IMG/VR virus record: IMGVR_UViG_3300037462_000170 | Coordinates: 1-33,261 of that record | Origin: a virus | Lineage: Duplodnaviria > Caudoviricetes | Length of the DNA stretch: 33,261 nucleotides | Reading direction: 5' to 3' (one strand) | In this document: positions 1 through 22,181 of the stretch, piece by piece | Position numbering within the stretch: the first letter of the stretch is position 1 | How the letters are laid out: every line of letters begins with the position of its first letter | Made by a program: the position numbers and the translations under genes | The notes under the pieces: generated by a model | Database searches by the model: none | The model's input: only the letters and a program-made list of their open reading frames with translations | What the model was told of the DNA's origin: nothing

Positions 1-9
1 GATCAAGGC

Positions 10-402
10 ATGAGCCACACAATCACACTACGCAACAAGGCGCAGGCCGACTCGATCATCCGCAAGGCAGCGGAGTGGATCGGGCGCCGCGTCGCAGACG
101 GCCGCGCTGTTGTGCTGACGCTGGAAGACGAGCGGCGCAACTTGGATCAAAACGCGCTGCTGCACGCGCTGCTGACCGACATCAGCCACCGCCACGAATG
201 GGCCGGCCGGAAGAGGGACGCTGAATGCTGGAAGCGGCTCTTTGTCGCAGCGTGGTGTCGGGCTCGCGGGGAGGCGGTCGAGATGCTCCCGGCGCTTGAT
301 GGCCACGGCGTCGACATCGTATTTCGGCGCACCAGCAAGATGAGCAAGGCAGAGGTATCTGAGCTGATCGATTACATACAGGCTTGGGATGAAGAGGCAT
401 AA
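10..402 (+). CDS. ninB: NinB/Orf-family recombination protein
   Basis: Motifs RRNLDQNALLHALLTDIS, W.GRK...E.WKRLF and RTSKMSKAEVSELIDYIQAW match lambdoid NinB. Its TAA stop lies in the GCATAAC core site. Confidence 0.9.
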   Translation: MSHTITLRNKAQADSIIRKAAEWIGRRVADGRAVVLTLEDERRNLDQNALLHALLTDISHRHEWAGRKRDAECWKRLFVAAWCRARGEAVEMLPALDGHGVDIVFRRTSKMSKAEVSELIDYIQAWDEEA

Positions 403-484
403 CGTGGAGTTCAGCGGCGTGCCCGCTGGACATTCGAGCAACCACCCTGCTGGCGGCACGTCCGCTGCAACGCAGCGGTTAGGC
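397..484 (-). repeat. attC-like site 1
   Basis: + strand: GCATAAC-GTGGA-GTTCAGCGG-CGTGCC...GGCACG-T-CCGCTGCAAC-GCAGCG-GTTAGGC; two unpaired bases on the right arm. Confidence 0.88.
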
Positions 485-507
485 GTCACTGGCGCCGGAG
501 CGAAGCA

Positions 508-714
508 ATGTGCGAGTGCATGAAAGAGATGAACGTGGTGCTTGAGAAGCACAACTGCCGGCTGGCGATGGGCCTGCAAGTGACGCCCGACATGGGCATC
601 AAGGGTCGCTACCTGATGGCGACCGAGAAGATCGACAAGACGAAGCGCATGCCCGTGCCCAGCGTGATGTGCAGTCACTGCCCGTTCTGCGGCGAGAAGC
701 TGGCGGGCGAGTGA
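508..714 (+). CDS. Small Cys-rich phage protein (CxC...CPFCG), cassette 1
   Basis: GGAG upstream of ATG; fills the space between attC1 and attC2; likely Zn-binding. Confidence 0.8.
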   Translation: MCECMKEMNVVLEKHNCRLAMGLQVTPDMGIKGRYLMATEKIDKTKRMPVPSVMCSHCPFCGEKLAGE

Positions 715-723
715 ATTCGTGAC

Positions 724-825
724 GCCTAACGGACAGGTGAGCCGACAAGGAGGCGAGACGAAATGACCGAAGCGAACCAGAACCACGATGCCGACGAAGG
801 TCGGCGCTCGACCGAACAGTTAGGC
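724..825 (-). repeat. attC-like site 2
   Basis: GCCTAAC-GGACA-GGTGAGC...GCTCGACC-GAACA-GTTAGGC; contains AAGGAGG and ATG 763. Confidence 0.85.
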
Positions 826-1047
826 CCGCTGGTGAACCGCGCATTGTTCGCGGACGAGTGCCAGAGACTCGCTGAGTGGGCGCTTATTGGCCCTGTGCAG
901 CGGGCCGCGCTTGAGAGCTTCGCCGAGCGCCTGCTGGCCGCAGAGCGCGAGCGGTGGAAAAGCCGGTGCGCGGGGAAATCTCACTATGGGTGCCAGTACC
1001 TCGCCACATGCGGCAGCGTGTGTAACAAGTGCGGCACTGCCGTTTAG
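763..1047 (+). CDS. Hypothetical protein with C-terminal Cys cluster, cassette 2
   Basis: Starts inside attC2 after AAGGAGG; C-terminal C..C.....CGSVCNKCG. Confidence 0.72.
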   Translation: MTEANQNHDADEGRRSTEQLGPLVNRALFADECQRLAEWALIGPVQRAALESFAERLLAAERERWKSRCAGKSHYGCQYLATCGSVCNKCGTAV

Positions 1048-1048
1048 G

Positions 1049-1163
1049 GCCTAACGTAGAGGTAAGCGGACCGCAACGGCGAGAAGGACCATGACCACCA
1101 CAGACCCCGCGAACACCACGAGCGGCGCCGCTGTTGCGACTCCGGTTGACCAACCTGTTAGGC
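1049..1163 (-). repeat. attC-like site 3
   Basis: GCCTAAC-GTAGA-GGTAAGCGGA...TCCGGTTGACC-AACCT-GTTAGGC; contains AAGGA and ATG 1091. Confidence 0.85.
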
Positions 1164-1450
1164 CAGCAACCGAAGTGCGCTGGTACTGCGTGAACCGAGA
1201 CGGTCTAGCCACGCTATGCCTCAACGAACAAGATGCGCACGAGATGGCGGCGGAGTGCGACATCGACTTTCCGCGTGGCGGTCCGCATCGGGCTGTGCGC
1301 CTGGTGGATGCACAACAACCGCTGACACGCCAGCAGATTGACGCCGTGATGACCGAGCACTACCCGCTCGACAGCCTGCTGCGCGAGAACGTGGACGCAT
1401 TCGAGGTGTGCGTGCGCGACATAGAGCGGCTTCATGGAATTGGGGCCTAA
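1091..1450 (+). CDS. Hypothetical protein, cassette 3 (paralogue of 6406-6750)
   Basis: Starts inside attC3, ends on the TAA of GCCTAAC; clear paralogue in cassette 12. Confidence 0.82.
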   Translation: MTTTDPANTTSGAAVATPVDQPVRPATEVRWYCVNRDGLATLCLNEQDAHEMAAECDIDFPRGGPHRAVRLVDAQQPLTRQQIDAVMTEHYPLDSLLRENVDAFEVCVRDIERLHGIGA

Positions 1451-1543
1451 CGCAGAGTTCACCGGCCCGACACGGCCGTGACGCTGCAGGCAGAAGCAAC
1501 GGAGGACCCGCCGTGGCGGGTCCGGTGGAACGCCCAGTTCGGC
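1445..1543 (-). repeat. attC-like site 4
   Basis: GCCTAAC-GCAGA-GTTCACCGG...CCGGTGGAAC-GCCCA-GTTCGGC. Confidence 0.85.
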
Positions 1544-1572
1544 TGGGGTTAGATGCAACCGAAAGGACGGAT

Positions 1573-1854
1573 GTGGACCACAACGAATGCGACCTGACGC
1601 CGTGGTTTGACGGCCGCACAAAGCCGATCCGCGTAGGCGTCTACATGCTCAAGTGCGGTGGCGCCGGGCTCAGAGACGGATACCAGCACTGGGACGGCAA
1701 AACGTGGGGGCCTTGGCATCCGAGCGCAGAACATGCCGCGCAGAGGCGGCCCGATCAACGCGCCGATCTGAAGTATCAGAACGACAACTGGCGCGGGCTC
1801 CGCAAGAAGCCGAACGTGGGAATTGAGCCGCCGCGTAGCGGTCGGCTCGAATGA
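1573..1854 (+). CDS. Hypothetical phage protein (TPWF..KP.RVGVY...WRGL), cassette 4
   Basis: Frame of track ORF 1408-1854; likely GTG start at 1573 after AAAGGA. Reads through into attC5 (KKPNVGIEPPRSGRLE*). Confidence 0.72.
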   Translation: MDHNECDLTPWFDGRTKPIRVGVYMLKCGGAGLRDGYQHWDGKTWGPWHPSAEHAAQRRPDQRADLKYQNDNWRGLRKKPNVGIEPPRSGRLE

Positions 1855-1864
1855 CGGGTTAGGC
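1809..1864 (-). repeat. attC-like site 5 (short, 56 bp)
   Basis: GCCGAAC-GTGGGA-ATTGAGCCG-CCGC-GTA-GCGG-T-CGGCTCGAAT-GACGG-GTTAGGC; on the - strand it reads like a classical 59-base element. Confidence 0.9.
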
Positions 1865-1883
1865 CCGTTGTAACCGGAGCGAG

Positions 1884-2054
1884 ATGATGGCGAGCGAACA
1901 ACCAAAGCCCGTGCAATGCGCGTGGTGCCGCAAGGTGTTCACTGCGGGCGGCGACATGGCCTGCGGTGCAAAGGTGCCCACCCACATGGCCGCAGGGCCT
2001 GACGGCGCGTGGTGCAAGACCGACGACATTGTGAAGATGCTGGAGAAGACATGA
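1884..2054 (+). CDS. Small hypothetical protein (56 aa, CxxC), cassette 5
   Basis: Not in the ORF track; translated by hand (MMASEQPKPVQCAWCRKVF...MLEKT*). GGAG RBS; ATGA overlap with the next gene. Confidence 0.65.
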   Translation: MMASEQPKPVQCAWCRKVFTAGGDMACGAKVPTHMAAGPDGAWCKTDDIVKMLEKT

Positions 2055-2266
2055 GCCCAAAGATGCAAGTGGCTATGCGGATCGTGAGCGAGCACCTGGA
2101 CGCGATACAGCGCTCGGTGTTCAAGTCCGATGCCGGCATGAAGCTGACCTTCATTGCCCGCGACCCGGCAAACCCGGAGGCCGACTTTCTGCTGAGCGAA
2201 GACGACCTATCCGAAGTGGCCGAACTGCTGATTCGCAGCGCTGCCCGCGAAGATGTACGGGCCTAA
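2051..2266 (+). CDS. Hypothetical phage protein, cassette 5
   Basis: ATG 2051 overlaps the upstream TGA; ends on the TAA of GCCTAAC. Confidence 0.75.
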   Translation: MSPKMQVAMRIVSEHLDAIQRSVFKSDAGMKLTFIARDPANPEADFLLSEDDLSEVAELLIRSAAREDVRA

Positions 2267-2356
2267 CGTTCGAGCTAAGCGGGAGACGCCCCATGACCAA
2301 GCATGAAGACACCACCCAAGCTGCCGGCGGCTCTCCGCTTGAGTGAGGGGTTGGGC
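2261..2356 (-). repeat. attC-like site 6
   Basis: GCCTAAC-GTTCGA-GCTAAGCGG...CCGCTTGAGT-GAGGG-GTTGGGC. Confidence 0.85.
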
Positions 2357-2385
2357 GGCTGGTGAGCGAAGGCACAGGAGTAGGC

Positions 2386-2508
2386 ATGCTGACATTGACG
2401 CTATGCAAGTTCACGCACTGCCGGCTGCGGCCAGCGTGGGCAAGCAACGCGGCCGGCTGGCAGTTTCACTGGCTGTGGATTTACTTTGAATGGCGGAACG
2501 AGCAATGA
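2386..2508 (+). CDS. Small Trp-rich peptide (40 aa), cassette 6
   Basis: AGGAG RBS; MLTLTLCKF...WQFHWLWIYFEWRNEQ*; ATGA overlap with the next gene. Confidence 0.55.
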   Translation: MLTLTLCKFTHCRLRPAWASNAAGWQFHWLWIYFEWRNEQ

Positions 2509-2735
2509 AGAAGGCCAAGGATTTCAACGCCGACATGGTGGACCTGCAGCTACAGGTGAGCCAAGCCTACGCGGCCGAGGTTCACAAGCTGCGGCAGGAG
2601 AACAAGGAACTGCGCGCGACCATCGCGGCTTTCCCTTCGACCGCCACCGAACTGCAAGACCGCGTGACGATGCTGGAATGCCAACTGCTGGCCCGCAGCG
2701 AGCCGCCCAACGTTGCAATTGAGCCGCGCCGTTAG
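2505..2735 (+). CDS. Coiled-coil hypothetical protein, cassette 6
   Basis: ATG 2505 coupled to the upstream TGA; heptad-like pattern; stops inside attC7. Confidence 0.7.
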   Translation: MKKAKDFNADMVDLQLQVSQAYAAEVHKLRQENKELRATIAAFPSTATELQDRVTMLECQLLARSEPPNVAIEPRR

Positions 2736-2761
2736 GCGTCGGCTCGAATTGCGTGTTGGGC
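2705..2761 (-). repeat. attC-like site 7 (short, 57 bp)
   Basis: GCCCAAC-GTTGCA-ATTGAGCCG-CGCC-GTTA-GGCG-T-CGGCTCGAAT-TGCGT-GTTGGGC. Confidence 0.9.
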
Positions 2762-2807
2762 GTCTCGTGCCGAAGCGCTGAAACGTTGGCGTGTTACAAA
2801 AAAGGTC

Positions 2808-2835
2808 TTGCGTAGTCTGGTTGTTGTGCTACAGT
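2808..2835 (+). promoter_or_regulatory. Putative sigma70 promoter inside cassette 7
   Basis: TTGCGT-16 nt-TACAGT with TG extended -10 motif and an upstream A tract, in an AT-rich gap before ATG 2868. Confidence 0.6.
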
Positions 2836-2867
2836 AACCACATCGACAACGCAACCGGAGAGACGAA

Positions 2868-3074
2868 ATGGCAACGCAACAAGTGAACCTCTACAGCCCC
2901 TGGATCAGCAACCGCAAGAACTGGACGGAGGCCGTGCGCGTTGAGCGTGTGATGCAGGCCACCGGCTGCACCGCTGACGATGCCCGCGAGTACCTGATGG
3001 CTGAGGAAGGCGACGAACACGACGCGATCCTGAGCTACCGCACCGACCGCCAAGCCTACGGGGCGGTGCGATGA
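2868..3074 (+). CDS. Small protein with UBA-like three-helix motif, cassette 7
   Basis: VERVMQATGCTADDAREYLMAEEGDEHDAI resembles UBA-like domains (EF-Ts N-terminus, NAC); GGAG RBS. Confidence 0.7.
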   Translation: MATQQVNLYSPWISNRKNWTEAVRVERVMQATGCTADDAREYLMAEEGDEHDAILSYRTDRQAYGAVR

Positions 3075-3337
3075 GCGCGGCCCTGCGGCAAGACCTAGAC
3101 GAGGCCCGCAAGGGCCTTGCCGAGTGGCGCACGCTGGCGCTTTCGTTGCAGGCACAGATGAAGCACCAAGCCGATTGCCGCGAAAGCGAACTTGTGACGC
3201 TGCTGAAGGACATCCTGCATTGCAGCGACGTGTTTGCAACCTTCCGGCCGGACCTGCACGCGCGGCTGCTGGACTTCGGGCGCCGGCTGAAGGCGCAGGA
3301 GCCCCGCGACGACTTCCCAGACGACTACGAGGTATGA
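3071..3337 (+). CDS. Hypothetical protein, cassette 7
   Basis: ATGA overlaps at both ends. Confidence 0.7.
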   Translation: MSAALRQDLDEARKGLAEWRTLALSLQAQMKHQADCRESELVTLLKDILHCSDVFATFRPDLHARLLDFGRRLKAQEPRDDFPDDYEV

Positions 3338-3534
3338 GCGGCGAACAGAACAAGGGCGGGCGACCGCCCGCGCCGCCTCAGTTGCAGCGCGTGAATGTGC
3401 CGCTTCGCCTGCCGCGCTGGATGGCGGAATGGATCGCGGAGCAGTGCGCAGAAGGCCCGCCGTACAAGACGGCGACACAGTTGATCGAAGCGGCGATGGT
3501 GAAAGCCTACAAGCTGCGCCCGCCGAAGGAGTGA
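3334..3534 (+). CDS. Probable ribbon-helix-helix DNA-binding protein, cassette 7
   Basis: GGRPP...RVNVPLRLPRWMAEWI...ATQLIEAAM pattern; start set to ATG 3334 (GAGG RBS, ATGA overlap). Confidence 0.7.
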   Translation: MSGEQNKGGRPPAPPQLQRVNVPLRLPRWMAEWIAEQCAEGPPYKTATQLIEAAMVKAYKLRPPKE

Positions 3535-3536
3535 CG

Positions 3537-3791
3537 ATGAGCCAGAACTGCCCCAAAGGCGATGAGCCGTGCATTCGCGGCTGCAAAGGATGGGAATGCC
3601 GAGATGGGTGGCCTGAAGACCGCGTGACCTGCGGCGGCGGCTTGCCAGGAGACCCAAACGGCGAACACGCCGCGCTGGCCGTCGAGGTTCTCGTGCGCAA
3701 GTACGAGGGCGCGATGCTGCGCGAGACTTTGCGAGAGGCGTTGACCGAGGCGTACATGATGGGCGCGCAGAACATCCTGGGGAGACTGTGA
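3537..3791 (+). CDS. Cys-rich hypothetical protein, cassette 7
   Basis: AAGGAG RBS before ATG 3537, in the frame of track ORF 3429-3791. Confidence 0.65.
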   Translation: MSQNCPKGDEPCIRGCKGWECRDGWPEDRVTCGGGLPGDPNGEHAALAVEVLVRKYEGAMLRETLREALTEAYMMGAQNILGRL

Positions 3792-3967
3792 TGGACTACC
3801 ACCTACTGACGAAGAAGTGCGACGGCATGTGCGACTCGTGCGAGTGCCCGCCCGCAACGCTTCCCGACAGGCCACCGACGCCCGGTTGCCGCACCCCCGA
3901 AGGGTGCCGCGAAAACGGCTGCCTTGTCTGGTGCGATGAGCACAAGCCGGAGGCGGCAAATCCATGA
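3791..3967 (+). CDS. Small Cys-rich protein (58 aa), cassette 7
   Basis: Not in the ORF track; MDYHLLTKKCDGMCDSCECPP...; TGATG and ATGA overlaps with both neighbours. Confidence 0.6.
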   Translation: MDYHLLTKKCDGMCDSCECPPATLPDRPPTPGCRTPEGCRENGCLVWCDEHKPEAANP

Positions 3968-4191
3968 CCCTGCAAGACCGCATTGACGAACTCGTGGCAC
4001 AGCACGGAAGCCTTCGCGCCGTAGCTCGCGTGACAGAGATTGACGTGGGCTACCTGTCGCGGATGCGGGCCTACGCGAACGTAAACCCGGGCCGCGACAA
4101 GCTGCGCCGGCTGGGCCTGCGCCGTGTGGTGACCTATGAACTGCTCAAGACGCCCAACGCAGAGCTAAGCGGACCGGGCCGGCGCAGATGA
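3964..4191 (+). CDS. Cro/XRE-like HTH protein, cassette 7
   Basis: HGSLRAVARVTEIDVGYLSRMR...NPG...LRRLGL; reads into attC8. Confidence 0.75.
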   Translation: MTLQDRIDELVAQHGSLRAVARVTEIDVGYLSRMRAYANVNPGRDKLRRLGLRRVVTYELLKTPNAELSGPGRRR

Positions 4192-4253
4192 ACTGTCAAG
4201 GAATGCTTGAGCGTTGCCCGCCGGCCCGGGTCCGCTTGAGCGCACTGTTGGGC
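4152..4253 (-). repeat. attC-like site 8
   Basis: GCCCAAC-GCAGA-GCTAAGCGGA-CCGGGCCGGCG...CGCCGGCCCGG-GTCCGCTTGAGC-GCACT-GTTGGGC. Confidence 0.9.
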
Positions 4254-4279
4254 GGCTGCCGCCCGGAGCGAGGAAGACT

Positions 4280-4477
4280 ATGCACACAGCACCGATGTCA
4301 GACAGCCAAGGCGAGTTCGCCGAGTTCAAGACCCAGCCCGACGTGCCTTGCCGCAAGTGCGGCGTGCACGCGGTGAGCATGCGCGAGTGGGAAAGCTCGT
4401 GCGGCGGCTGGGAGGACTACCAGTACAAGTGCCACCACTGCGGCCATACGTGGTGGGTGGAAGGAATTGACGCATGA
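4280..4477 (+). CDS. Zinc-ribbon protein, cassette 8
   Basis: CRKCG...YKCHHCGHTW; ATG 4280 after GAGGA. Confidence 0.75.
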   Translation: MHTAPMSDSQGEFAEFKTQPDVPCRKCGVHAVSMREWESSCGGWEDYQYKCHHCGHTWWVEGIDA

Positions 4478-4692
4478 AGTACTGGTGGCTCGTTGAGAAC
4501 TTCACTGCCGAAGGGCATTCCACCGGGCTCTATATGGCGTGCCAAGTGAACATGACCCTGACCGCCGACGTGCACAAGGCTCGCAAGTTCCGCCGCCAAC
4601 GCACGGCCGAGTTCCGTGCGCTGGACATGCGTGACGCGAGGCGCGGCGACTGGCGCGCCGTGGAGCACGGCTTTGAGGACAGCAAGCCATGA
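4474..4692 (+). CDS. Hypothetical phage protein, cassette 8
   Basis: ATGA overlaps at both ends. Confidence 0.72.
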   Translation: MKYWWLVENFTAEGHSTGLYMACQVNMTLTADVHKARKFRRQRTAEFRALDMRDARRGDWRAVEHGFEDSKP

Positions 4693-4991
4693 GCAGAGAA
4701 GCTTTTGGCGACCCGCCAGAACAGCAGGAAGTGCCTGAGTATTGCCCGAACTGCGGCAGCGACTTCTACATGCCTGGCTGCACGCACTGCGAAGAGGTGA
4801 AGCGGCGCTGCGCCGCCGAGTCCGAAGCGCTGGCCCTGCGCGGGGTTCTGCACCGCATGTTGGAAGCGCCGACGACGCAAATCAGCGTTGGCTGGAAGGA
4901 TGCGATCAGGCGGGCGATGTTCGCAGCCGTGCCCGACAGCAAGACGCCCAACGTGCGAATTGAGCCGGTGACCCCGGCCACGGAGGAATGA
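4689..4991 (+). CDS. Hypothetical protein with two CxxC pairs, cassette 8
   Basis: CPNCG...CTHC; reads into attC9 (KTPNVRIEP...). Confidence 0.72.
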   Translation: MSREAFGDPPEQQEVPEYCPNCGSDFYMPGCTHCEEVKRRCAAESEALALRGVLHRMLEAPTTQISVGWKDAIRRAMFAAVPDSKTPNVRIEPVTPATEE

Positions 4992-5040
4992 TGACCACAG
5001 AAACCACGCCGGGGCACTCGGCTCGAATGAGGGGTTAGGC
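4946..5040 (-). repeat. attC-like site 9
   Basis: GCCCAAC-GTGCGA-ATTGAGCCG...CGGCTCGAAT-GAGGG-GTTAGGC. Confidence 0.88.
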
Positions 5041-5059
5041 CCGTCGTAACCGGAGCGAG

Positions 5060-5299
5060 ATGATGTTTGAGAGCTTCACAATCCAACACCCGTACCGAGC
5101 TGGGACGATGGAGGTTGTTCCTGCTGCCGACTACGCAACAGCAAAGCTGGCAGCCCTGGACTGCCGAACATGCCGACACCTGAGCGCCAAGCACCAAGAG
5201 TGCCTGTCTGTGCTGCGATGCGAAGGCGGCGACATGCACCAGCGGCAAGGCAAACTGATGCTGTGGCACACGGCAGACCTTCAGGGGCGCGGCTTCTAG
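5060..5299 (+). CDS. Cys-containing hypothetical protein, cassette 9
   Basis: GGAG RBS; CRTCRH motif; fills the cassette. Confidence 0.68.
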   Translation: MMFESFTIQHPYRAGTMEVVPAADYATAKLAALDCRTCRHLSAKHQECLSVLRCEGGDMHQRQGKLMLWHTADLQGRGF

Positions 5300-5300
5300 G

Positions 5301-5395
5301 GCCGAACGCAGAGGTCAGGCGGGCCAACGGCCCAGAGGCTTGACCACACCACACACCTGCGAGGCCGTTGGCCTTGCCTGCACCGAAAGTTAGGC
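5301..5395 (-). repeat. attC-like site 10
   Basis: GCCGAAC-GCAGA-GGTCAGGC-GGGCCAACGGCC...GGCCGTTGGCC-TT-GCCTGCACC-GAAA-GTTAGGC; only a 4-nt spacer, possibly impaired. Confidence 0.8.
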
Positions 5396-5421
5396 CTGGT
5401 GGCCAAAGAAGGGAGTAGACG

Positions 5422-5664
5422 ATGCGAAGCAGCAGCCGATTGAACTTGGCCGCGGCGATGGCGATGGCCTCGATTGCCGGCCTGAGCGCCGCGCAAGAGG
5501 CCGCCGGCCCCCCGTTGCGCAGCGCCGGAAGCGGCAACAACCGACGGCCGACTCCGCCGCGCATGGATACGGAGCAGGCGCGCGAGGTGGCGGCCTGGAA
5601 TGCCGAAGTGGACCGCCGAAAGGCTGAGAAGAAGGCCGCCAAGCTGGCGAGGCGCGCGGCCTAA
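5422..5664 (+). CDS. Hypothetical protein, cassette 10
   Basis: GGGAG RBS; Ala-rich N-terminus, basic C-terminus; ends on the TAA of GCCTAAC. Confidence 0.7.
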   Translation: MRSSSRLNLAAAMAMASIAGLSAAQEAAGPPLRSAGSGNNRRPTPPRMDTEQAREVAAWNAEVDRRKAEKKAAKLARRAA

Positions 5665-5757
5665 CGCAGCGGTAACCGGACAAGGAGGCTGCAGTGAGTG
5701 AGCAAAGCGAGAAGGTGCCGCCGGCCGACGCAGGTCCGGTTGACCAACCTGTTGGGC
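5659..5757 (-). repeat. attC-like site 11
   Basis: GCCTAAC-GCAGC-GGTAACCGGAC...GTCCGGTTGACC-AACCT-GTTGGGC; contains AAGGAGG and GTG 5694. Confidence 0.87.
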
Positions 5758-5930
5758 GGCCGGTGGACGAAGCCACGGACGCCGAAGGGCCGCGAGGCAC
5801 CTACGGGTGCGCTTGCGTGAGCCGCAGCGGCCATGCATGCGCCGAGCTGCGCTACGGCTACCGCGAGATACCGGAGCCGTGCGAGTGCCTGTGCCACGAC
5901 TGGAGAGACGGCGATGACGACCTGGGCTGA
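5694..5930 (+). CDS. Cys-rich hypothetical protein, cassette 11
   Basis: GTG start inside attC11 after AAGGAGG; CAC...C...CECLCH. Confidence 0.68.
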   Translation: MSEQSEKVPPADAGPVDQPVGRPVDEATDAEGPRGTYGCACVSRSGHACAELRYGYREIPEPCECLCHDWRDGDDDLG

Positions 5931-6102
5931 CGAGTACGTGACCCTGCTGGAAGACTGCGAGAAGCGCAGCGAGCGCCTGAGCGATTGGGAACTCGGTTTC
6001 GTGGACTCGCTGCAGCGGCAACTGGCCGAAGGGCGCAGGCCCAGCGCGAAGCAGATCGAGACGCTGGACACCATCTGGGAGCGCGCCACCAAGCGCGGCT
6101 GA
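5914..6102 (+). CDS. Small hypothetical phage protein, cassette 11
   Basis: LSDWELGFVDSL...PSAKQIETLDTIW pattern; ATG 5914 after GGAG. Confidence 0.75.
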   Translation: MTTWADEYVTLLEDCEKRSERLSDWELGFVDSLQRQLAEGRRPSAKQIETLDTIWERATKRG

Positions 6103-6106
6103 CGCC

Positions 6107-6367
6107 ATGCACGTTGAACTGCAGATGGACCTAGCGCTGCTGCAGCGCGCCATGAAGGCCGAAACCGAAGCCGCGCTGCTGCGGGCTGCGCTGGACGCCG
6201 AAACGGCACGCTGGGAGGAAGCCCTGCGCCTGACATGGCAGATGGTGGACCCGCTGAAACCGGCCGGGCAACCCGGCAGCTACTGGCGCGGCCAGGACGC
6301 CGGGATAGTGGCCGCGCTGACCACACTGCGGGCGAACCTGAAGACGCCCAACGCAAAGCTAACTTGA
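6107..6367 (+). CDS. Hypothetical protein, cassette 11
   Basis: Follows the upstream stop by 4 nt; reads into attC12 (KTPNAKLT*). Confidence 0.68.
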   Translation: MHVELQMDLALLQRAMKAETEAALLRAALDAETARWEEALRLTWQMVDPLKPAGQPGSYWRGQDAGIVAALTTLRANLKTPNAKLT

Positions 6368-6463
6368 CCGCCACGGCGCGAGCGCCACAACTTGAGGAAG
6401 ACGAGATGACCGATGCAGACAACAGGCCCGCCGTGGCGGGTCAAGTTGAGCGACCTGTTAGGC
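6346..6463 (-). repeat. attC-like site 12
   Basis: GCCCAAC-GCAAA-GCTAACTTGA-CCGCCACGGCG...CGCCGTGGCGG-GTCAAGTTGAGC-GACCT-GTTAGGC. Confidence 0.9.
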
Positions 6464-6750
6464 CTGCCGCCGAAGCGCGCTGGTACTGCCTGAGCCGCGA
6501 AGGCATGGCAACGCTGTGCGCCGACGAGGAAGACGCAAAAGAGGTGGCCGCCGAAAGCTGGGTTCTGTACCCGAACAACGGGCCATATCGTGTGGCGCAA
6601 ATGGTGGACCGACAACAGCCGCTGACGCGCCAGCAAATCGACGCGGTGATGACCGAGCACTACCCGCTGAGCAGCCTGCTGCGCGAGCAAGTGGACGCCT
6701 TCGAGGCATGCGTGCGCGACATTGAGCGGCTGCATGGCATTGGGGCCTAA
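6406..6750 (+). CDS. Hypothetical protein, cassette 12 (paralogue of 1091-1450)
   Basis: ATG 6406 after GAGGA inside attC12; aligns with the cassette 3 protein. Confidence 0.82.
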   Translation: MTDADNRPAVAGQVERPVRPAAEARWYCLSREGMATLCADEEDAKEVAAESWVLYPNNGPYRVAQMVDRQQPLTRQQIDAVMTEHYPLSSLLREQVDAFEACVRDIERLHGIGA

Positions 6751-6865
6751 CGCCCGAGCTAACCTGACCGACACAGCGCGATGACAGACCAAGTAACCCA
6801 GGACGCACCGACCGACGCCAGCCACAGGCCCGCTGTGGCGGTTCAGGTTGAGCGAAGTGTTAGGC
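6745..6865 (-). repeat. attC-like site 13
   Basis: GCCTAAC-GCCCGA-GCTAACCTGA...TCAGGTTGAGC-GAAGT-GTTAGGC; contains ATG 6781. Confidence 0.87.
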
Positions 6866-7419
6866 CCCATGCGACGGCTGCGGGCTACGGCTGCATATTG
6901 GCTGACCCGCCTTGGGCGCTGACGATGGCCGGGCAGCGCAAGCGTGCGAAGGAAGGCAAGAAGCCCGAGGCGCTGCCGTACCCGACGATGACCATTGCGC
7001 AGATATGCGACATGCCCGTTGGCCAGCTTGCCACCGAAGACGCGCACCTGTGGCTGTGGACAACAAACCAGCACCTTGAGGACGGATTCAAGGTGATGCG
7101 AGCGTGGGGCTTCAAGTACCTGGCGCCTGTGCATTGGGTGAAGCCGACAGGCATGGGCAACTGGTTTGTACACCGCACGCAGACGATGCTTTTTGGCTAC
7201 CGCGAGAAGTGCAGGTTTCCGCTGGCGCGCTACCGGCCGAACGTGTTTCACAGCGGCGACCCGAAGCGGCACAGCGAGAAGCCGGAAGCGGCCTATGAAC
7301 TGGTGGAAGCGGTGAGCCCTGGGCCGCGCTTGGAGTTGTTCGCGCGACGGAAGCGCGATGGCTGGCACACCTGGGGAAATGAGGTGCCATGCGATGTATT
7401 CATGGGGCCTAACAGGTAG
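6781..7419 (+). CDS. MT-A70-family adenine methyltransferase, cassette 13
   Basis: ILADPPW catalytic motif, YPTM, HLWLWTTN, WGF.Y, HSEKP, RLELFAR, GW..WGNE. Confidence 0.92.
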   Translation: MTDQVTQDAPTDASHRPAVAVQVERSVRPHATAAGYGCILADPPWALTMAGQRKRAKEGKKPEALPYPTMTIAQICDMPVGQLATEDAHLWLWTTNQHLEDGFKVMRAWGFKYLAPVHWVKPTGMGNWFVHRTQTMLFGYREKCRFPLARYRPNVFHSGDPKRHSEKPEAAYELVEAVSPGPRLELFARRKRDGWHTWGNEVPCDVFMGPNR

Positions 7420-7425
7420 ATATGC
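7407..7425 (-). other. attI-like recombination site at the right end of the array
   Basis: GCCTAAC is not followed by an attC hairpin but by AGGTA-GATATGC. GATATGC is a 6/7 inverted match to GCATAAC at 397-403. Confidence 0.65.
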
Positions 7426-7769
7426 GCACTTTGCAACCTCTGCACAGCCGCTGGGCTCGCTACAACGCCGACCCCGCGAACCACGCGCGCCGCCGCGCAG
7501 CGAGAGACGCAGCCCGCATCGCCGGCCCTGCGCCAGCCTACCCACCAGACGCGCCGCTGCACGGAGACTGGCTCGGCGGTCGCATCAACGGCCACACCGT
7601 CATCGTGCGCCTGATGCGTGACCCAAGGCACCGCAGCGACCAATGGGCGGCCGAGGTCGACGGCGAGGTGATCGCGGACGCTGCGGGGCTGACGGAGCTG
7701 TGGAGACTGCTGCACCAGCGCTGGCCGCGGGCGCTGTCCCGGCGAGAGATTGCGGGGATGACGACATGA
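7422..7769 (+). CDS. Hypothetical protein
   Basis: ATG within the attI-like site; ATGA overlap with the next ORF. Confidence 0.62.
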   Translation: MRTLQPLHSRWARYNADPANHARRRAARDAARIAGPAPAYPPDAPLHGDWLGGRINGHTVIVRLMRDPRHRSDQWAAEVDGEVIADAAGLTELWRLLHQRWPRALSRREIAGMTT

Positions 7770-7975
7770 CAGACAACACCGGATGGCGATGGGTCCGCCT
7801 GCGCCAAACGTCAGACGGCCGGCGCGTCGCCAAGGAATGGGCCGCCGAAGCCGCCGAGCCGCCCAGCTTCTTGACGCCGACGGCGACAGTTGCGCGCGAG
7901 GTCATGCGCGGATTCAGGCCCGAGCATACGCATCGGGCGTGGTCGCATGTGTTCGGCTACCGCTACAGGGAGTGA
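7766..7975 (+). CDS. Hypothetical protein
   Basis: ATG 7766 in the frame of track ORF 7643-7975, coupled to the upstream stop. Confidence 0.55.
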   Translation: MTDNTGWRWVRLRQTSDGRRVAKEWAAEAAEPPSFLTPTATVAREVMRGFRPEHTHRAWSHVFGYRYRE

Positions 7976-7976
7976 G

Positions 7977-8159
7977 ATGATCATCCGCATCGAATCCGCA
8001 TCGACCCGCCGCTGGCAGGCCCGCGCGTACACCGTGGCGCCTCGGTACGTGTCCAAGCTGTTCAGCGATGCCAAGTGCGGCGGCATCGATGCTGCATACG
8101 CACTCGCTGCGGCAGAGGCGCCGAAGCTCAAGCGCAAGGCAAGGAGGCGGCGGGCGTGA
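7977..8159 (+). CDS. Small stand-alone AP2-like DNA-binding protein
   Basis: GGGAG RBS; WQARAY...SKLFSDAKCGG..AAYALA resembles phage AP2 domains. Confidence 0.55.
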   Translation: MIIRIESASTRRWQARAYTVAPRYVSKLFSDAKCGGIDAAYALAAAEAPKLKRKARRRRA

Positions 8160-8375
8160 CGATCTGGCGCGTCCTGTGGTTTCCGTAGTAGCAGCGTATC
8201 ATGGCGGCTCTCACACCGTCGTTGCCACACGTCGACCAGCCAACCCGCTCAGGCGTCATGAGGATTAGCCCCCCGGCTGATCGAAACCGCGGGACCGGGG
8301 ACTCTCACGCATGCGCCTCCAATCGGGAGAGCTGCCGGTGACCAACGCGGGAAGCCGCGAACGGGGCGCAGTCGT

Positions 8376-8456
8376 GAGGGCGAATGCGCAGGCTGATGCG
8401 CAGCGGAGTAGCTCCCGTCCGCTACGGCAAGCCGGAGATCAGCGCCGGCCGCTCTC
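8376..8456 (+). ncRNA. Candidate structured RNA (four-way junction with complementary loops)
   Basis: Closing stem GAGGGCG/CGCTCTC; arms TGCGCA-GGCTGA-TGCGCA, AGCGGA...TCCGCT and GCCGG-AGATCAGCG-CCGGC; loops GCTGA and TCAGC are complementary. Confidence 0.5.
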
Positions 8457-8777
8457 TTCCAACTCACCGAACCCTGACGCCAGCGACTCCCGCGCCCTCT
8501 TGGCCGCGCTGTCGATCTGCTGCGAGTCGATCAGCGCCTGGCCGGTGATGTAGGTTCGCAGCAGGGTCTCAAGCTCATCCTGCCGCGTCCTGGCCTCGTC
8601 GAGCTGCCTGACCAGCCGATCCCGCTCCCGGCGCTCGTGCCTGCGGTCGCGGTCGACGTAGCCGCGAAGCTCATCCAGCCGCGCCCATGCAACCATGAGC
8701 CGGACGCGGATGTTCCGGCGCTGCGCCCGCTTGCGGCGGGCTTGGTCCCATGCGCGAAGGCGGCCGAGGATGTTCAT
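8439..8777 (-). CDS. Basic coiled-coil hypothetical protein
   Basis: 112-aa Arg-rich helical ORF at the end of the - strand late operon. Confidence 0.55.
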   Translation of the reverse strand: MNILGRLRAWDQARRKRAQRRNIRVRLMVAWARLDELRGYVDRDRRHERRERDRLVRQLDEARTRQDELETLLRTYITGQALIDSQQIDSAAKRARESLASGFGELEESGRR

Positions 8778-8887
8778 GGGATTGGTTGTGTGCTACTATT
8801 TCCAGGTCTGGCTTCTCGGTTGGACACGGCGGGTGCTTCGGCGCTCGCTTGAAGGCCCCGTGGTGCGAGCCCGGGGCCTTCGCCTTT

Positions 8888-10021
8888 CTAGCGCGCCGTC
8901 AACTCCGTTTTCCGAGCGCTGCTGAAGCTGGTGCCGATCCAGTAGCCAGCCACCATGCCGACGACCGCAAGAACCGCGGTCACGATCTGAACCCGAAGCT
9001 CGCCGGTGTAGTTGCCGGGATGGACGAACAGCACATCCACCAGCAGCATCATCGGCATCAGGATCAGGACGAGGCTGATCAGGAATGCCGGGTTCCGCCA
9101 CAGCGGGATGCCTGACTCCATGGTGGCAGTGTTCGCCTTCCTGGCGCCCTCAACACCACCGCCGCCGGCCTCGGTCAGTTCGTACCAGATCGACTCGACG
9201 GCCTTCTCTGCCGCAGCCCTTGCCACGGGGTCGGCCCTGATCTTCTCGGCCGCGTCCTGGGCATTGACGGCACCCGTGGCGGCAGTCACGGCCTCGACGA
9301 CCACCTCTGCGGCCTTGATGTTTCGCTCTGCCACTTGAGAGCCGGACCCGAACACCCGGCCCAGCTTCGGGATGCTCTCGATCAGGCTCGGCAAGACGGC
9401 TGCGATGATGGGCGCGATTGCGGGCATGCTTTGCTCCTTCGGCCACTCAGGGCCTTCGATCCACAGAGGCACTTCGGCCGGGGCTGGCTGGTTGGCAAGC
9501 ACCGCCTTTGCTCGCTCCCAACGTGCGCGGCGGTCTGCGGCTCCGTTCGTCCCGCCATTGATGCGGCGCGTGATGCGGTCGAAGTCGCCAGCGTCGGCCA
9601 ATGCGTTTAGGTTGCGCGACCCCCACCACGCCGCGGCCGACCACGCGGCCCACTGCGGTTCTTCCAAGGCTTCGGGGCTGGCCTCAAAGTCTGGCGCTCC
9701 CTGGTGGGCAAGTAGCTGCCCCATCTGCCGATAGTTGTCCCGGCCGGTGACTTGGATCAGGCCCCGACCGCGATAGCGCGTGCCGTCGCCTTGGTTGACG
9801 TTGCCGAGGTCTTTCCGACCTTCGTAGGCCGATCCGTCGGCAATCTCGCGCAGCCACTTGAATGACCCGGACTCGTGGCCGATTTGGGCCAAGAAGGCGG
9901 CCAACCGATCTGTGGTATTGATCTCGTAGAAGCGGCAGGCTTCCGACAGCCAGCCAGCGAACAACTCCGCGCGCTCCGGCGTGCAGCCGGTGGCGTCTTG
10001 GAGTAGTTGCGGGGTGATCAT
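8888..10021 (-). CDS. GH19-family endolysin fused to a C-terminal membrane (holin-like) domain
   Basis: RLAAFLAQIGHESG, YEGRKDLGN, GDG.RYRGRGLIQVTGR.NY, ITRRINGG.NG..DR. Start reset to ATG 10021, overlapping the upstream stop. Two hydrophobic segments at the C-terminus. Confidence 0.88.
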   Translation of the reverse strand: MITPQLLQDATGCTPERAELFAGWLSEACRFYEINTTDRLAAFLAQIGHESGSFKWLREIADGSAYEGRKDLGNVNQGDGTRYRGRGLIQVTGRDNYRQMGQLLAHQGAPDFEASPEALEEPQWAAWSAAAWWGSRNLNALADAGDFDRITRRINGGTNGAADRRARWERAKAVLANQPAPAEVPLWIEGPEWPKEQSMPAIAPIIAAVLPSLIESIPKLGRVFGSGSQVAERNIKAAEVVVEAVTAATGAVNAQDAAEKIRADPVARAAAEKAVESIWYELTEAGGGGVEGARKANTATMESGIPLWRNPAFLISLVLILMPMMLLVDVLFVHPGNYTGELRVQIVTAVLAVVGMVAGYWIGTSFSSARKTELTAR

Positions 10022-11079: not shown

Positions 11080-13220
11080 ACGACCATCTGCTCCACGGGG
11101 ATGGCGAAGATCGCGTTGCCGTCGATCTCGATCAGGATGTGGCCGACCCGCGTGCCGGGCGTGCCGCTCAAGGTCCAGGCCGGGAAGGCGCCGGTGTAGA
11201 ACCTCAGGAGGGCAGTCACGCCGCCGCCGTCCTCGAAGTCCATCGCATAGGCCGCCGTCGCCGTGTTGCTCTGCCGGATCAGCGCGCCGTCGACGTTCGC
11301 GCGGAAGTCGATGCCGTTGGTCAGCTTCGCCAGCGCCTTGTCGTCGCCCTGCGGCGCGATCTCGTGCGCAGCGCGGGCCACGAAGGCGGCGCCGCCGCTG
11401 TTTGCCTTGCCCAGCACCAGCTGCGTGCCCACGCGGCTGGCCGCCCCGGTCGACCCGTTGCCGAACAGGTCCAGCTCGAGCGCGCACAGGATGCCGGCGC
11501 CGCTGTCGCCGCTGAAGTCCTGGGCCTCCAGCACGCCCGCGAACGAGTTGCCATCGGTGGCGTACTTGTACGCCTGGCCGTACAGCGTGACGTTCTCCGC
11601 CTCGTCGCCGGCATAGTTGCTGTTGCGCGCGATCATGGACCACTCGAATGCAGTCGTCGTCGCGCTCGACTTGTGGTCGATGATGAACGGGCTGCGCACC
11701 GTGCCCAGGCCGCCGGCCGGCGACGTGCGCGCGATGCGGGTCGTGTCGTAGGTCGGCACGAGGATGGCCGGATCGCCGGTGGCGCCAGCGTCGAAGGTGT
11801 GCGAGCCGGTCCAGTCGTAATCGGCCGCCTCGTCGACCGTGCCGGGGCTGCCGCCCAGCTCGTTGGTGATCGACGGCACCTCGGCCGCGTCTTCGTACAG
11901 CGCGCCGGTCCAGCCGACTTCGACCGAGCCGCCGCCGCTGGTGCCGGTCTGCACGTACTTGCGCGCGCTGTCGGCGGTGTAGCTGTTGAAGCTCTTGTGA
12001 CCGCAGCCGATGAGCGTGATCTTGTTCGCCGCCGTCGAGGCCAGCGAGTCGCCGTAGACGTTGTGCTTCGTGTGCGTGGTGCTGTCGATGCGGTTGAAGC
12101 TGCAGCCGGTGAGTGAGTGCGCGGCGCCCGATGTGCCGGACGCGCTGATGAAGACGTCAGCGAAGCCGGCGTTTGCCTCGAAGTAGGTGCCGCTCATCAC
12201 CAGGCCGGTGGAGCCCTCGCCGCCCGCGTCGACGACCTTCAGCGCCCAGTTGTTCGCGTTGTAGGTGGCCAGCGCGTCGCCGCCGTTGCTCTCGAAGGTG
12301 CCGCCCACGAAGGACAGGCACGCCGGCTGCTCGAACAGCGCGCCGTAGGTGGTGTTCCCGGCCACCACGCACGAGGTGAAGGTCAGCGCGTTGGGGTTCG
12401 CGTAGTTGGCATTGAAGCCGCGAATCCCCTTGTTGCCGAACATGAAGTAGCTGTTCAGGAACAGCCCGACCACGCAGTCGGAGATGGCCGCCACCTCGTC
12501 GCCGCCGTCGAAGTAGCAGTTCTCGACGCTGAAGTACGCCAGGTTATCGAGCGCCAGCACCTTGCCCGTCTTGTCGGCCTTCTCGAAGGTCAGGCCGCGC
12601 AGGAACTGCTGCGACACGAAGCCGGTCAGCGTCGAGCCCAGCAGCGTCAGCATGGTGTAGTTGCCGGCGCCGCCCAGGATGCGGGAGCTGGCCATGCCGT
12701 CACCCAGTAGCGAGGCCTTGCGCGCGAAATAGTCGTCGGCCAGCGGGCCGGTGCTGGCTACGCTGTTGTCGATGGTCAGGCCCGAACTGATCAGGTAGTC
12801 CCCGCGCGGGAAGTACACGATGCCGCCGCGCGGGTTCGCCGCGTTGATCGCCGCCTGGATGGCCGCGGTGTCGTCGGTCACGCCGTCGCCGACAGCGCCG
12901 TAGTCGGTGACGTTGAACCACAGGCCATCCCGGGCCACGCCGCGCGGCTGGTAGAACAGCAGCTGCCCGGCCGAGTCGCGCACGTTCAGGCTGAACGGCT
13001 CCAGCGCGAACAGCTCGGCCGGCGTGCCGTTGCGCACCGCGTAGCCTGCCTTCGTGCGGATGGGCTGGTCGGCCGGCTGCGTGCCGGCGCGGTCCCAGTA
13101 CATCGTGATCGGAGCCGTCTCGGGGTTCTGCCCGGCCTGACCGAAGTAGAGATAGCCGCCGTGCAGCGGGCGGCCGGCCTTGTCAGCATAGAGCGGGTAG
13201 GGGGAGAGGGTGGTCAGCAT
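11076..13220 (-). CDS. Tailspike / polysaccharide depolymerase (beta-helix)
   Basis: N-terminal P22-like particle-binding motif (YADKAGRPLHGGYLYFGQAGQNP); FNVTDYGAVGDGVTDDTAAIQAAI pectate-lyase-3-type start; beta-helix-like repeats. Confidence 0.88.
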   Translation of the reverse strand: MLTTLSPYPLYADKAGRPLHGGYLYFGQAGQNPETAPITMYWDRAGTQPADQPIRTKAGYAVRNGTPAELFALEPFSLNVRDSAGQLLFYQPRGVARDGLWFNVTDYGAVGDGVTDDTAAIQAAINAANPRGGIVYFPRGDYLISSGLTIDNSVASTGPLADDYFARKASLLGDGMASSRILGGAGNYTMLTLLGSTLTGFVSQQFLRGLTFEKADKTGKVLALDNLAYFSVENCYFDGGDEVAAISDCVVGLFLNSYFMFGNKGIRGFNANYANPNALTFTSCVVAGNTTYGALFEQPACLSFVGGTFESNGGDALATYNANNWALKVVDAGGEGSTGLVMSGTYFEANAGFADVFISASGTSGAAHSLTGCSFNRIDSTTHTKHNVYGDSLASTAANKITLIGCGHKSFNSYTADSARKYVQTGTSGGGSVEVGWTGALYEDAAEVPSITNELGGSPGTVDEAADYDWTGSHTFDAGATGDPAILVPTYDTTRIARTSPAGGLGTVRSPFIIDHKSSATTTAFEWSMIARNSNYAGDEAENVTLYGQAYKYATDGNSFAGVLEAQDFSGDSGAGILCALELDLFGNGSTGAASRVGTQLVLGKANSGGAAFVARAAHEIAPQGDDKALAKLTNGIDFRANVDGALIRQSNTATAAYAMDFEDGGGVTALLRFYTGAFPAWTLSGTPGTRVGHILIEIDGNAIFAIPVEQMVV

Positions 13221-20813: not shown

Positions 20814-22181
20814 TCACATCACCACGAGCACGACGCCCGTGGCCGTCATCACCTGGCCCTGGTTGCCGCCCGGCAGCGCGTGCACCTTGACGAGCTTCGT
20901 CGTGCCGCGGCGCTTGGCGTGCGTGGGCACGTTGTCGTCGTCGATCACCAGCGTCCACAGCTCGCCGTTGCGCGCCATGCCGATGCGCGGCGGGGACATG
21001 GCGCCGTCGCCTGGGGTCCAGCTCGAGGAGCCGCCGATGTTCGCCAGCGCCTGCGCGATGTCGAGTTCGCCGGCTTGTCCGATCACCAGCGACGCGCCGC
21101 TGATGAGCGCGGTCAGCGGCTGGGCGGTGTCGATCTCCAGCGCCATGCCGGCCAGGATCGTGGCCGCGGCCTGCGCGGACATGGCCTGCGCGCTGTCGGT
21201 CTCGGTCGCCTGCCCGATTGCCACCGTGCGCACGCCAGGGACTGCGGTAAGCGGCTGCGCCGTGTCGGTCTCGATGGCCTGGCTGATCAGCGTGGCGCCG
21301 CCGACCAGCGTGGTCATGGACTGCGCCTCGTCGGTTTCCTGGGCCTGGCCGATGGCTGCCGCGAACGTCGCGCCGGCCGTCAGCGCCTGGGCCGTGTCAG
21401 ACTCGGCCGCCTGCCCGATGCCGACCGTCTGCGGGCTGCCGCCGGTGACGGGCGTCAGGGCCTGCGCGGTGTCGGTCTCCGATGCCTGACCAATGGCGGC
21501 GGCCAGTGCCGTCGTGACCGTGAATCCCTGCGCGGTGTCGGTCTCAGTGGCCTGGCCGATGGCGACGGTCTGGCCGCTGGTCGGCATCGTGGCGGTGTCG
21601 CCATTCGTGCCGACGTTGAAGTAGCGCCAAAGCTGCGTGTTGGTGTTGGCGCCCTTCACGCACCCGACGTGCCCGGCCGTGCTGTAGGTGGCGTCGGTCT
21701 GGCTGCAGATCCACGTCCCAGGCTCGTCGCCCTCCGCGCCGGTCCAGCCCTTTGCCTGGATCGTGGTCCCGACCATGCGAAAGCGAATCCAAACCCAGGT
21801 ACCGGACGCAACCGAGAAGGTGCCGTTCTCGATTGCCGTGTAGGTCGACCCGTTGAATCGGTAAGTGTCGATCGAGTTGGTTCGCACCCGCAGCGCGTAG
21901 CCGTTGCGGGTGCCAGACGTCGAGATGCGGCCGCCCAGGTAGCGTTGCGTCGCTGTCGTCGAATCAACGTAGACCTGACAGAGGATGTCGAAGTCGTCGC
22001 GGTCGGCATCCGCGTCGATGTCATTCCAGACCAGCGCTTCGTTGTGGCTGCTGGTGCTGGTGGCCTGCAACTGGTCGGTGCTGACCGGCGCAGTCCAGAC
22101 AGGCGTCGAGTGGCCGGAGGTTAGCTCGACTTCCGTCCAGTCACCGATGCCATCGGCGAAGTCATGATGGAAGACGGCCAC
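20814..22181 (-). CDS. Putative fibre/adhesin with beta-rich N-domain and tandem repeats
   Basis: Trp/Thr-rich N-terminal ~200 aa followed by 8 IGQAxETDTAQ repeats. Confidence 0.7.
   Translation of the reverse strand: MAVFHHDFADGIGDWTEVELTSGHSTPVWTAPVSTDQLQATSTSSHNEALVWNDIDADADRDDFDILCQVYVDSTTATQRYLGGRISTSGTRNGYALRVRTNSIDTYRFNGSTYTAIENGTFSVASGTWVWIRFRMVGTTIQAKGWTGAEGDEPGTWICSQTDATYSTAGHVGCVKGANTNTQLWRYFNVGTNGDTATMPTSGQTVAIGQATETDTAQGFTVTTALAAAIGQASETDTAQALTPVTGGSPQTVGIGQAAESDTAQALTAGATFAAAIGQAQETDEAQSMTTLVGGATLISQAIETDTAQPLTAVPGVRTVAIGQATETDSAQAMSAQAAATILAGMALEIDTAQPLTALISGASLVIGQAGELDIAQALANIGGSSSWTPGDGAMSPPRIGMARNGELWTLVIDDDNVPTHAKRRGTTKLVKVHALPGGNQGQVMTATGVVLVVM
21051..21560 (-). repeat. 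Eight degenerate coding repeats of about 22-25 aa
   Basis: IGQATETDTAQ, IGQASETDTAQ, IGQAAESDTAQ, IGQAQETDEAQ, ISQAIETDTAQ, IGQATETDSAQ, AGMALEIDTAQ, IGQAGELDIAQ. Confidence 0.9.

Follow-up and report, generated by a model that had tools for sequence, protein, structure and literature searches.

Introduction

Phages are already known to carry clusters of attC sites lacking integron integrases (CALINs) as well as integrons, and phage attC sites recombine with attI1 through the integron integrase IntI1 (Qi 2023, PMC9892861; this and the other cited sources are drawn on for the portions available). Among the CALINs of that study, those of virulent phages were short (three attC sites in TJE1) and their orientation was called typical, while the complete integrons were host-derived or of class 1. 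Here we describe an attC array at 397-7413 on the plus strand of a 33,261-bp linear virus record (IMG/VR IMGVR_UViG_3300037462_000170; the whole of this stretch is referred to as the window), the genome of a P22-like phage. It resembles the CALINs of Qi 2023 in being a cluster of attC sites without an integrase and with methyltransferase cargo. It differs from them in its 13 cassettes, all reversed, its phage-type cargo, an attI-like site and the phage-associated groups of IntI in its relatives; the supplementary tables of Qi 2023 may hold reversed cases.

In most integrons the cassette genes lie opposite to intI (Cury 2016). The class 1 and sedentary chromosomal integrons share with the array its hairpin anatomy, the AA|C crossover and an 8-13 bp stem formed by the two ends of a cassette, and share with its relatives the geometry of intI, attI and attC. 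They differ in that the cassette genes of the phages point the same way as intI instead of against it; expression in the phage would come from a phage operon, with the newest cassette farthest from the promoter. Treponema-type inverted-integrase integrons (Cury 2016, PMC13323075) also have intI and cassette genes on one strand. There, intI is flipped relative to attC, whereas in the phage arrays this geometry is regular and the genes are flipped within their cassettes. Insertion at attG sites (Loot et al., bioRxiv 10.1101/2022.09.11.507474) is similar in that IntI places cassettes at a distance from intI, where they can be expressed from promoters in the vicinity. However, attG sites are reported to be unlike att sites, whereas the putative phage landing site is conserved across 7 loci, its two inverted boxes being separated by 5 nt as in attI1. 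Insertion facing the promoter was called never observed (Nivina 2016, PMC5027507), a statement that concerns whole cassettes and not the genes inside them, and lone reversed genes do exist in ordinary cassettes, such as a toxin-antitoxin pair in locus L231. Wholly reversed cassette arrays with a phage IntI were not described in the literature that we searched, which included the available parts of PMC3518468, PMC8946536, PMC4889954, PMC9024848, PMC13366799, PMC13323075 and PMC5371416, with subscription papers and the Qi 2023 supplement outside it.

Our analysis indicates that the window probably holds 13 reversed integron-type cassettes, in which IntI moves hairpin-plus-gene units at AA|C, with entry at 7412|7413, older units being pushed toward the recombination gene ninB and an early transcript reading them.

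Polarity of the attC hairpins

On the plus strand, the array comprises 14 AAC-type and 13 GTT-type cores, which make up 13 hairpins of 56-121 bp plus one lone terminal core. The hairpins have the properties of attC sites: inverted 7-bp cores with AAC/GTT closing stems within the usual range (~55-141 bp), L boxes after unpaired spacers of 5-6 nt, an extrahelical G on the bottom strand, and a crossover that genome comparison places between A and C of the bottom-strand AAC. The cores are RYYYAAC-like, many of them departing from strict RYYY (GCCG, GCAT). With at least two attC sites on the same strand within 4 kb and no adjacent intI, the array can be classed as a CALIN in this incomplete contig, where a distant intI is possible.

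The cut made by IntI falls between A and C of AAC on the bottom strand. In that strand a G (position 16) and a T (position 23 or 24) stay unpaired, both on the arm that is not cut (Nivina 2016, PMC5027507). A symmetric test, which superseded a first orientation score based on rigid spacing (5 vs 0), found an extra base in the plus-strand 3' arm of all 13 sites, and a G at position 16 in 11 of them; a second extra base, uncounted, was seen in most hairpin alignments. Since the unpaired G (and T) are on the coding strand, it is the coding strand that would be the recombined bottom strand, cut at plus-strand AA|C. Judged by this anatomy, each hairpin belongs to the gene 3' of it, and all 13 cassettes are reversed. 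The preliminary description had the cassettes opening at plus-strand G|TT, a position that the asymmetry of the hairpins and the breakpoints in relatives (see below) move to AA|C; it had mentioned AA|C in a proposed check, without noticing the reversal of the genes.

Other features of the hairpins were examined as well. The plus strand is purine-rich in 12 of the 13, as reported for bottom strands, and folding energy was a poor discriminator of strands (plus more stable in 9/13). When gene orientation was scored, none of the 11 window sites covered was assigned the typical, though not obligatory, arrangement in which the top strand carries the gene and its own attC follows (10 reversed, 1 unclear). 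Annotated class 1 regions served as a control for the polarity rule, and in 6 of 7 the top strand was the strand of the resistance genes (minus, upstream of intI1); no site was found in the seventh. The hairpin-first order also explains both ends of the array: the first core holds the stop codon of ninB, and the last one (7407), as the putative landing site, lacks a hairpin.

Complementarity of cassette ends

The preliminary description drew attention to the matching ends of the cassettes. We compared the 13 opening cores (478 to 6859) with the 13 closing cores (724 to 7407) on the plus strand. As had been claimed, the two ends of a cassette matched over at least 7 bp in 12 of 13 cassettes, cassette 9 being the exception, and the two cores within a site were complementary in only 5 of 13 sites. 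This total includes the site with its first core at 397, beyond the interval originally described. All six core pairs quoted as examples were found as written. Perfect runs between own ends were 12, 9, 8, 8, 11, 11, 11, 8, 3, 8, 8, 8 and 13 bp for cassettes 1-13. Permuted end pairings (1,000,000) did not reach this complementarity, with a mean of 5.7 matches of 7 bp versus 12 observed (p = 3.0e-4) and a mean summed run length of 70.5 versus 118 (p about 1e-6). When shuffling was restricted to cassettes with an identical 7-mer, the mean summed run was 106.3 versus 118 (p = 0.0035), and therefore the extension past the core is also non-random.

A single attC finder was then run over all fetched loci. 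It recovers 11 of the 13 window sites; counts for other loci are lower bounds, and some of their "cassettes" span a missed site. Own-end matches of 7 bp were found in 6/6 cassettes of class 1 plasmid arrays (runs of 8-13 bp), versus 0/6 matches within sites. The corresponding values were 19/24 and 7/24 in bacterial chromosomal arrays, 25/33 and 2/33 in viral loci with IntI, and 119/152 and 48/152 in viral and metagenome loci found with parts of the window. The integron of Shewanella phage M16-3 had 0/2 own-end matches (two cassettes scored, only 6 bp) and Rctr41k 1/2. Extension beyond 7 bp as a peculiarity of these phages was rejected, as run lengths above 7 did not differ significantly between reversed and canonical cassettes (144 vs 25, p = 0.16). 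The own-end match is an ordinary signature of true integron cassettes and is uninformative on polarity or recent activity.

The attC of a cassette has been defined as the form taken in the circle (ACID paper, PMC2674596, in the part available), and the complementary ends would be the closed core stem of each cassette circle. The literature searched, with the cassette classics of the 1990s and subscription papers outside it, nowhere spelled out the own-end stem of 8-13 bp. Folding of the circularised cassettes against their array form, which had been proposed as a check, gave a mixed comparison of energies. The proposal that the repeats are integron attC sites bounding cassettes, not terminators or repetitive extragenic palindromic (REP) elements, stands; its extension to actual excision and integration does not follow from the end match, which by itself shows no movement, the evidence for this coming from relatives. 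The end-matching first flagged is textbook, and the novel part is the reversed array system.

Exchange of cassettes between phages

Related viral and metagenome loci were fetched using ninB, the protein encoded at 7422, two cassette proteins and two DNA patterns. Cassette 1, including its hairpin, recurs in one of them (L036; 93% over 387-731) behind another upstream gene, and the hairpin of cassette 7 is identical in another (L019), with other neighbours on both sides. We assembled 290 distinct hairpins with their flanks. For flanks at least 90% alike, the hairpin was kept in 16 of 22 pairs sharing only the downstream gene and in 0 of 28 sharing only the upstream gene end; for flanks 80-90% alike it was kept in 6/19 and 0/22, respectively. 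Across 21 pairs sharing hairpin and gene, identity was 1.0 directly after AAC and 0.48 at the base preceding it. Across 50 pairs sharing the upstream end, identity of ~0.9 dropped to 0.44, 0.24 and 0.18 after AACN. In these alignments the identity switch between relatives is at AAC. Near-identical hairpins differed on both flanks in 151 of 175 pairs, and no non-identical pair kept both. Sequence comparison shows reassortment of hairpin-plus-gene units among phages. Among 50,697 annotated phage records no match to the array was found, and none to one hairpin was found in plasmids.

Such reassortment could have other causes. The units may be true cassettes by origin that are now shuffled chiefly by phage homologous recombination (of the NinB/RecE type) at shared hairpins or cores, the integron machinery being a relic. 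The location of ninB beside the array and of a RecE-like gene ahead of a related one is in keeping with this, as are the contig without IntI, the 9-nt repeat around an extra gene in cassette 8, the chimeric look of cassette 9 and the large number of near-identical hairpins with both flanks different. We nonetheless consider it improbable as the chief process, as the breakpoints are on the 3-nt AAC with flanks sharing few bases, whereas exchange would be expected within the longer homology of the hairpin, and no non-identical pair retained both flanks. Some homologous exchange probably acts in addition.

Ordinary polarity, with cassettes opening at plus-strand G|TT and the hairpin after the gene, is very unlikely. 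The own-end match is compatible with either polarity, some homologies start near plus-strand GTT (contigs from 477 and from 1853) and cassette 11 homologs carry other hairpins (0.53-0.63 alike). However, the extra base would then be on the wrong arm in 13/13 sites, and the last gene has no hairpin after it while the first gene has one before it. Ordinary polarity is largely refuted by the 50 pairs sharing an upstream gene end, none of which kept the next hairpin.

Integrases beside related arrays

The window has no intI beside its array. Relatives G010, L027 and L041 do, and are complete integrons in this respect. Two viral loci found with the DNA patterns have IntI (TIGR02249, 413 and 465 bits; cut-off 265) immediately behind the array, encoded in the direction of its cassette genes. 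G010 is a complete 47-kb phage with array, half-site, intact IntI (426 bits, same cut-off) and phage integrase in a row. Its array has a hairpin 93.5% alike to that of cassette 12 and a gene 84% alike to one of cassette 8. In three loci from a family scan (L057, L069, L223), the array is located among early genes, 3' of a repressor or RecE-like gene and 5' of a phage integrase.

A search with one viral IntI provided 62 viral loci and the best 80 of 587 bacterial loci. Gene orientation was assigned by an amino-acid open reading frame (ORF) score with bacterial controls, superseding a codon-only score (68 reversed of 74). Upstream of intI, 51 viral sites were reversed and 3 canonical (54 sites in 24 of the 62 loci), as opposed to 3 reversed, 29 canonical and 8 unclear bacterial sites (40 sites in 19 of the best 80 loci). 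The pattern-found viral loci had 121 reversed, 4 canonical and 8 unclear sites. A tree was built from 49 integrases, leaving out 5 short rows; in it, the 24 with reversed arrays form two supported groups. The larger contains 19 reversed-array members and one contig of a metagenome-assembled genome (MAG), its size being inflated by the choice of query. The smaller has 5 members, including those of G010 and L041, and is sister to class 1 and Burkholderiales chromosomal integrases.

These orientations bear on a further explanation, that the phage acquired part of a host chromosomal integron in a single capture and that this block is frozen. Such captures occur in Vibrio and Shewanella phages (Qi 2023, PMC9892861, as far as available). 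Here it has an even smaller chance of being correct than ordinary polarity: called chromosomal cassettes are mostly canonical (29 of 32) and those of the window reversed, the cargo resembles phage families and other viral contigs, and within one Burkholderiales family just 1 genome out of 401 matched, also with reversed cassettes (a shallow search, 2 candidates scored per genome). A reading of the repeats as terminators, as REP-like elements or as miniature transposons' inverted ends has a negligible probability: gene bodies are indeed bounded by inverted ends of 8-13 bp, but there was no Rfam match, a terminator scan was at background (8 vs 6.9), and the hairpins show attC box spacing and extra bases and adjoin IntI in relatives.

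A second layout was observed in phages, with attC 3' of intI on the same strand and canonical genes (11 canonical, 1 unclear), in L085, L088-L092, L104 (~11300-13100) and L227 (KX853513, 6641-8814). These integrases branch apart from the reversed-array ones, and the layout resembles that of inverted-integrase integrons. A reverse transcriptase gene (phrog_1423) was found at 18976-19974 of L069, in a phage with a reversed array.

A putative landing site and a model for cassette movement

The array ends at an attI-like site on the minus strand (7407-7425), consisting of the lone core (7407-7413) and, after a spacer of 5 nt, another inverted box (7419-7425) covering the ATG at 7422, with no hairpin after it. 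It shares two inverted boxes at 5-nt spacing with attI1, and its function here is putative. The site is anchored to a conserved 115-aa gene without known function (7422-7769, plus strand), whose product has no Pfam or PHROG family and a best Atlas score of 0.78, which is a lead only. All 6 homologs of this gene in relatives are preceded by the identical half-site layout, each with a different upstream cassette end. In one of the relatives (L003) a single hairpin and a single gene precede the same half-site, the hairpin upstream. Removal of the array would place the ninB stop codon 10 nt before the ATG at 7422. Half-sites before intI, picked automatically, were clear in only 8 of 27 loci.

We infer that IntI acts on these sites, inserting cassette circles sequentially at 7407-7425. 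New units would enter at 7412|7413 and displace older ones toward ninB, leaving the newest nearest the landing site. A phage early transcript through ninB would read the cassette genes, making an integron promoter unneeded; a Pc reading into the array from the attI-like site would transcribe these genes in antisense. Because the contig is without an integrase, IntI may have acted in an ancestor, or may act in trans from a co-resident integron-bearing phage or from the host.

Several observations weigh against this model. Neither an integron integrase nor any tyrosine recombinase (TIGR02249, PF00589) matched in the contig, which is linear and estimated by CheckV to be 91% complete, and no promoter-like site was found in 1-9000. 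Only one of ten cassette-sharing viral records has IntI (G010); the other nine, mostly fragments, have none. None of the 5 ninB homologs or of the 6 homologs of the 7422 gene showed an empty ninB-7422 junction, and contigs of 7 runs contained no cassette circle junction or cassette-loss variant, though absence from contigs proves nothing. The loci were chosen because they resembled either the window or a single IntI, and the pairs compared are not independent, 10 of the 21 sharing hairpin and gene coming from one five-member family. Of the 22 close pairs, 6 shared the gene but not the hairpin, as did 13 of the 19 that are more distant, which indicates exchange at the plus-strand GTT side over longer times, and hairpin 1 precedes other genes in three runs. 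Cassette 9 shares 48 nt across plus-strand GTT with cassette 5 and looks like a chimera carrying the cassette 5 leader, and many relatives cease to share sequence at the extra gene between the 9-nt repeats of cassette 8; both muddy a clean picture. The swaps at the GTT side, the cassette 9 chimera and the extra gene of cassette 8 could be due to top-strand recombination, to cassette creation from shared hairpin families or to homologous recombination.

We lean, by a small margin, toward a more general picture in which betaproteobacterial temperate phages run their own mirror-image integron. It would have phage groups of IntI and a shared pool of reversed cassettes, transcribed with the early operon, whose hairpins also serve as starts of translation. 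Its minimal landing sites, built into a start codon, would allow phages without an integrase, such as the present one, to go on gaining genes via IntI in trans. Phage mosaicism is commonly ascribed to homologous and illegitimate recombination. If the picture is correct, the mirror-image integron would be a site-specific engine of this mosaicism, and a reversed integron in the early operon would mean that temperate phages swap their small accessory genes as defined units, at a defined site and by a defined enzyme. The array also shows that the polarity of attC can be separated from that of the gene, a point relevant to the origin of cassettes. Cassettes of the reversed pool entering a bacterial integron would lie antisense to its promoter Pc.

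Cassette contents

Under the hairpin-first polarity, a unit extends from one plus-strand AA|C to the next, with the hairpin first and the gene second, and all 13 units are complete. All annotated ORFs of the array are on the plus strand, as are the cassettes. Cassette 1 (403-729) has its attC hairpin at 397-484 and a gene at 508-714. Cassette 2 (730-1054; attC 724-825) and cassette 3 (1055-1450; attC 1049-1163) each carry one gene that starts within the hairpin (763-1047 and 1091-1450, respectively). The reading frame of cassette 4 (1451-1814; attC 1445-1543; phrog_26541) crosses its hairpin, with a likely GTG start at 1513, and stops at 1854 in the next one. Two genes each are found in cassette 5 (1815-2266; 56-bp attC 1809-1864; genes 1884-2054 and 2051-2266) and cassette 6 (2267-2710; attC 2261-2356; genes 2386-2508 and 2505-2735). 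Cassette 7 (2711-4157, 1447 bp), with a 57-bp attC at 2705-2761, has about six small genes; an extra GTT-type core (2731-2737) is present in the loop of its hairpin. Cassette 8 (4158-4951; attC 4152-4253) has three genes, the third bracketed by a 9-nt direct repeat (4678-4686 and 4935-4943). Cassette 9 (4952-5306; attC 4946-5040; gene 5060-5299) is the sole one with non-matching ends, and is followed by cassette 10 (5307-5664; attC 5301-5395; gene 5422-5664). Cassette 11 (5665-6351; attC 5659-5757) contains three genes, the first (GTG at 5694) starting within the hairpin. Cassette 12 (6352-6750; attC 6346-6463) has a gene at 6406-6750 and cassette 13 (6751-7412; attC 6745-6865) an MT-A70 DNA methyltransferase gene at 6781-7419 (PF05063, phrog_359), both starting within their hairpins. 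We infer that cassette 13 was the last inserted. Apart from the methyltransferase, the cargo consists of small phage-type proteins, three of them with PHROG families lacking known function. DNA methyltransferase genes recur in or beside reversed arrays (L027, L041, L069, L240 and the window).

Genes thus start inside their own hairpins in cassettes 2, 3, 11, 12, 13 and probably 4, because in hairpin-first units gene and start move together. In cassettes 4, 6, 7, 8 and 11 the last gene stops within the following hairpin, and that of cassette 13 just beyond the landing core. One common reading frame across the core was rejected, as in-hairpin starts use two phases (26 and 20) and the third once, of 294 sites. 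The gene of cassette 3 has a paralog in cassette 12 (83% over 175 nt). In other phages just the front half or just the back half of this gene is present, and it looks like a fusion of two modules. Three cassettes have an identical 12-nt 3' end coding for KTPN (4147, 4941, 6341), and this shared end module may make it possible to add genes inside cassettes. A 15-16 codon ORF with a ribosome-binding site (4988-5038) lies entirely in hairpin 9, overlapping the stop of the preceding gene and ending at the core; a translational relay is possible. Hairpin 6 holds a similar short ORF (2293-2346).

Genomic context

Upstream of the array on the plus strand is ninB (10-402), encoding a NinB/Orf recombination mediator (PF05772, E 1e-37; phrog_72), whose stop codon supplies the AA of the outermost crossover point. 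A few small genes follow the array, and then, on the minus strand, a P22-like late region (8888-32451) with family matches to Holliday junction resolvase, terminase, portal, coat, ejection, tail and endolysin genes. Replication and immunity genes were absent among the 56 ORFs scanned, and therefore part of the genome is missing. As to the host, the 1 of 401 genomes mentioned above (the family of a Comamonadaceae MAG) carries a gene of cassette 8 within a reversed array, a weak pointer to Burkholderiales. A non-coding structured stretch is located between converging operons (8160-8465), with a CCA end near 8460, no tRNA call and only sub-threshold Rfam matches. In addition, a repeat of 66-75 nt is present in eight copies at 21040-21577, within a minus-strand gene of 455 aa that has no family match.

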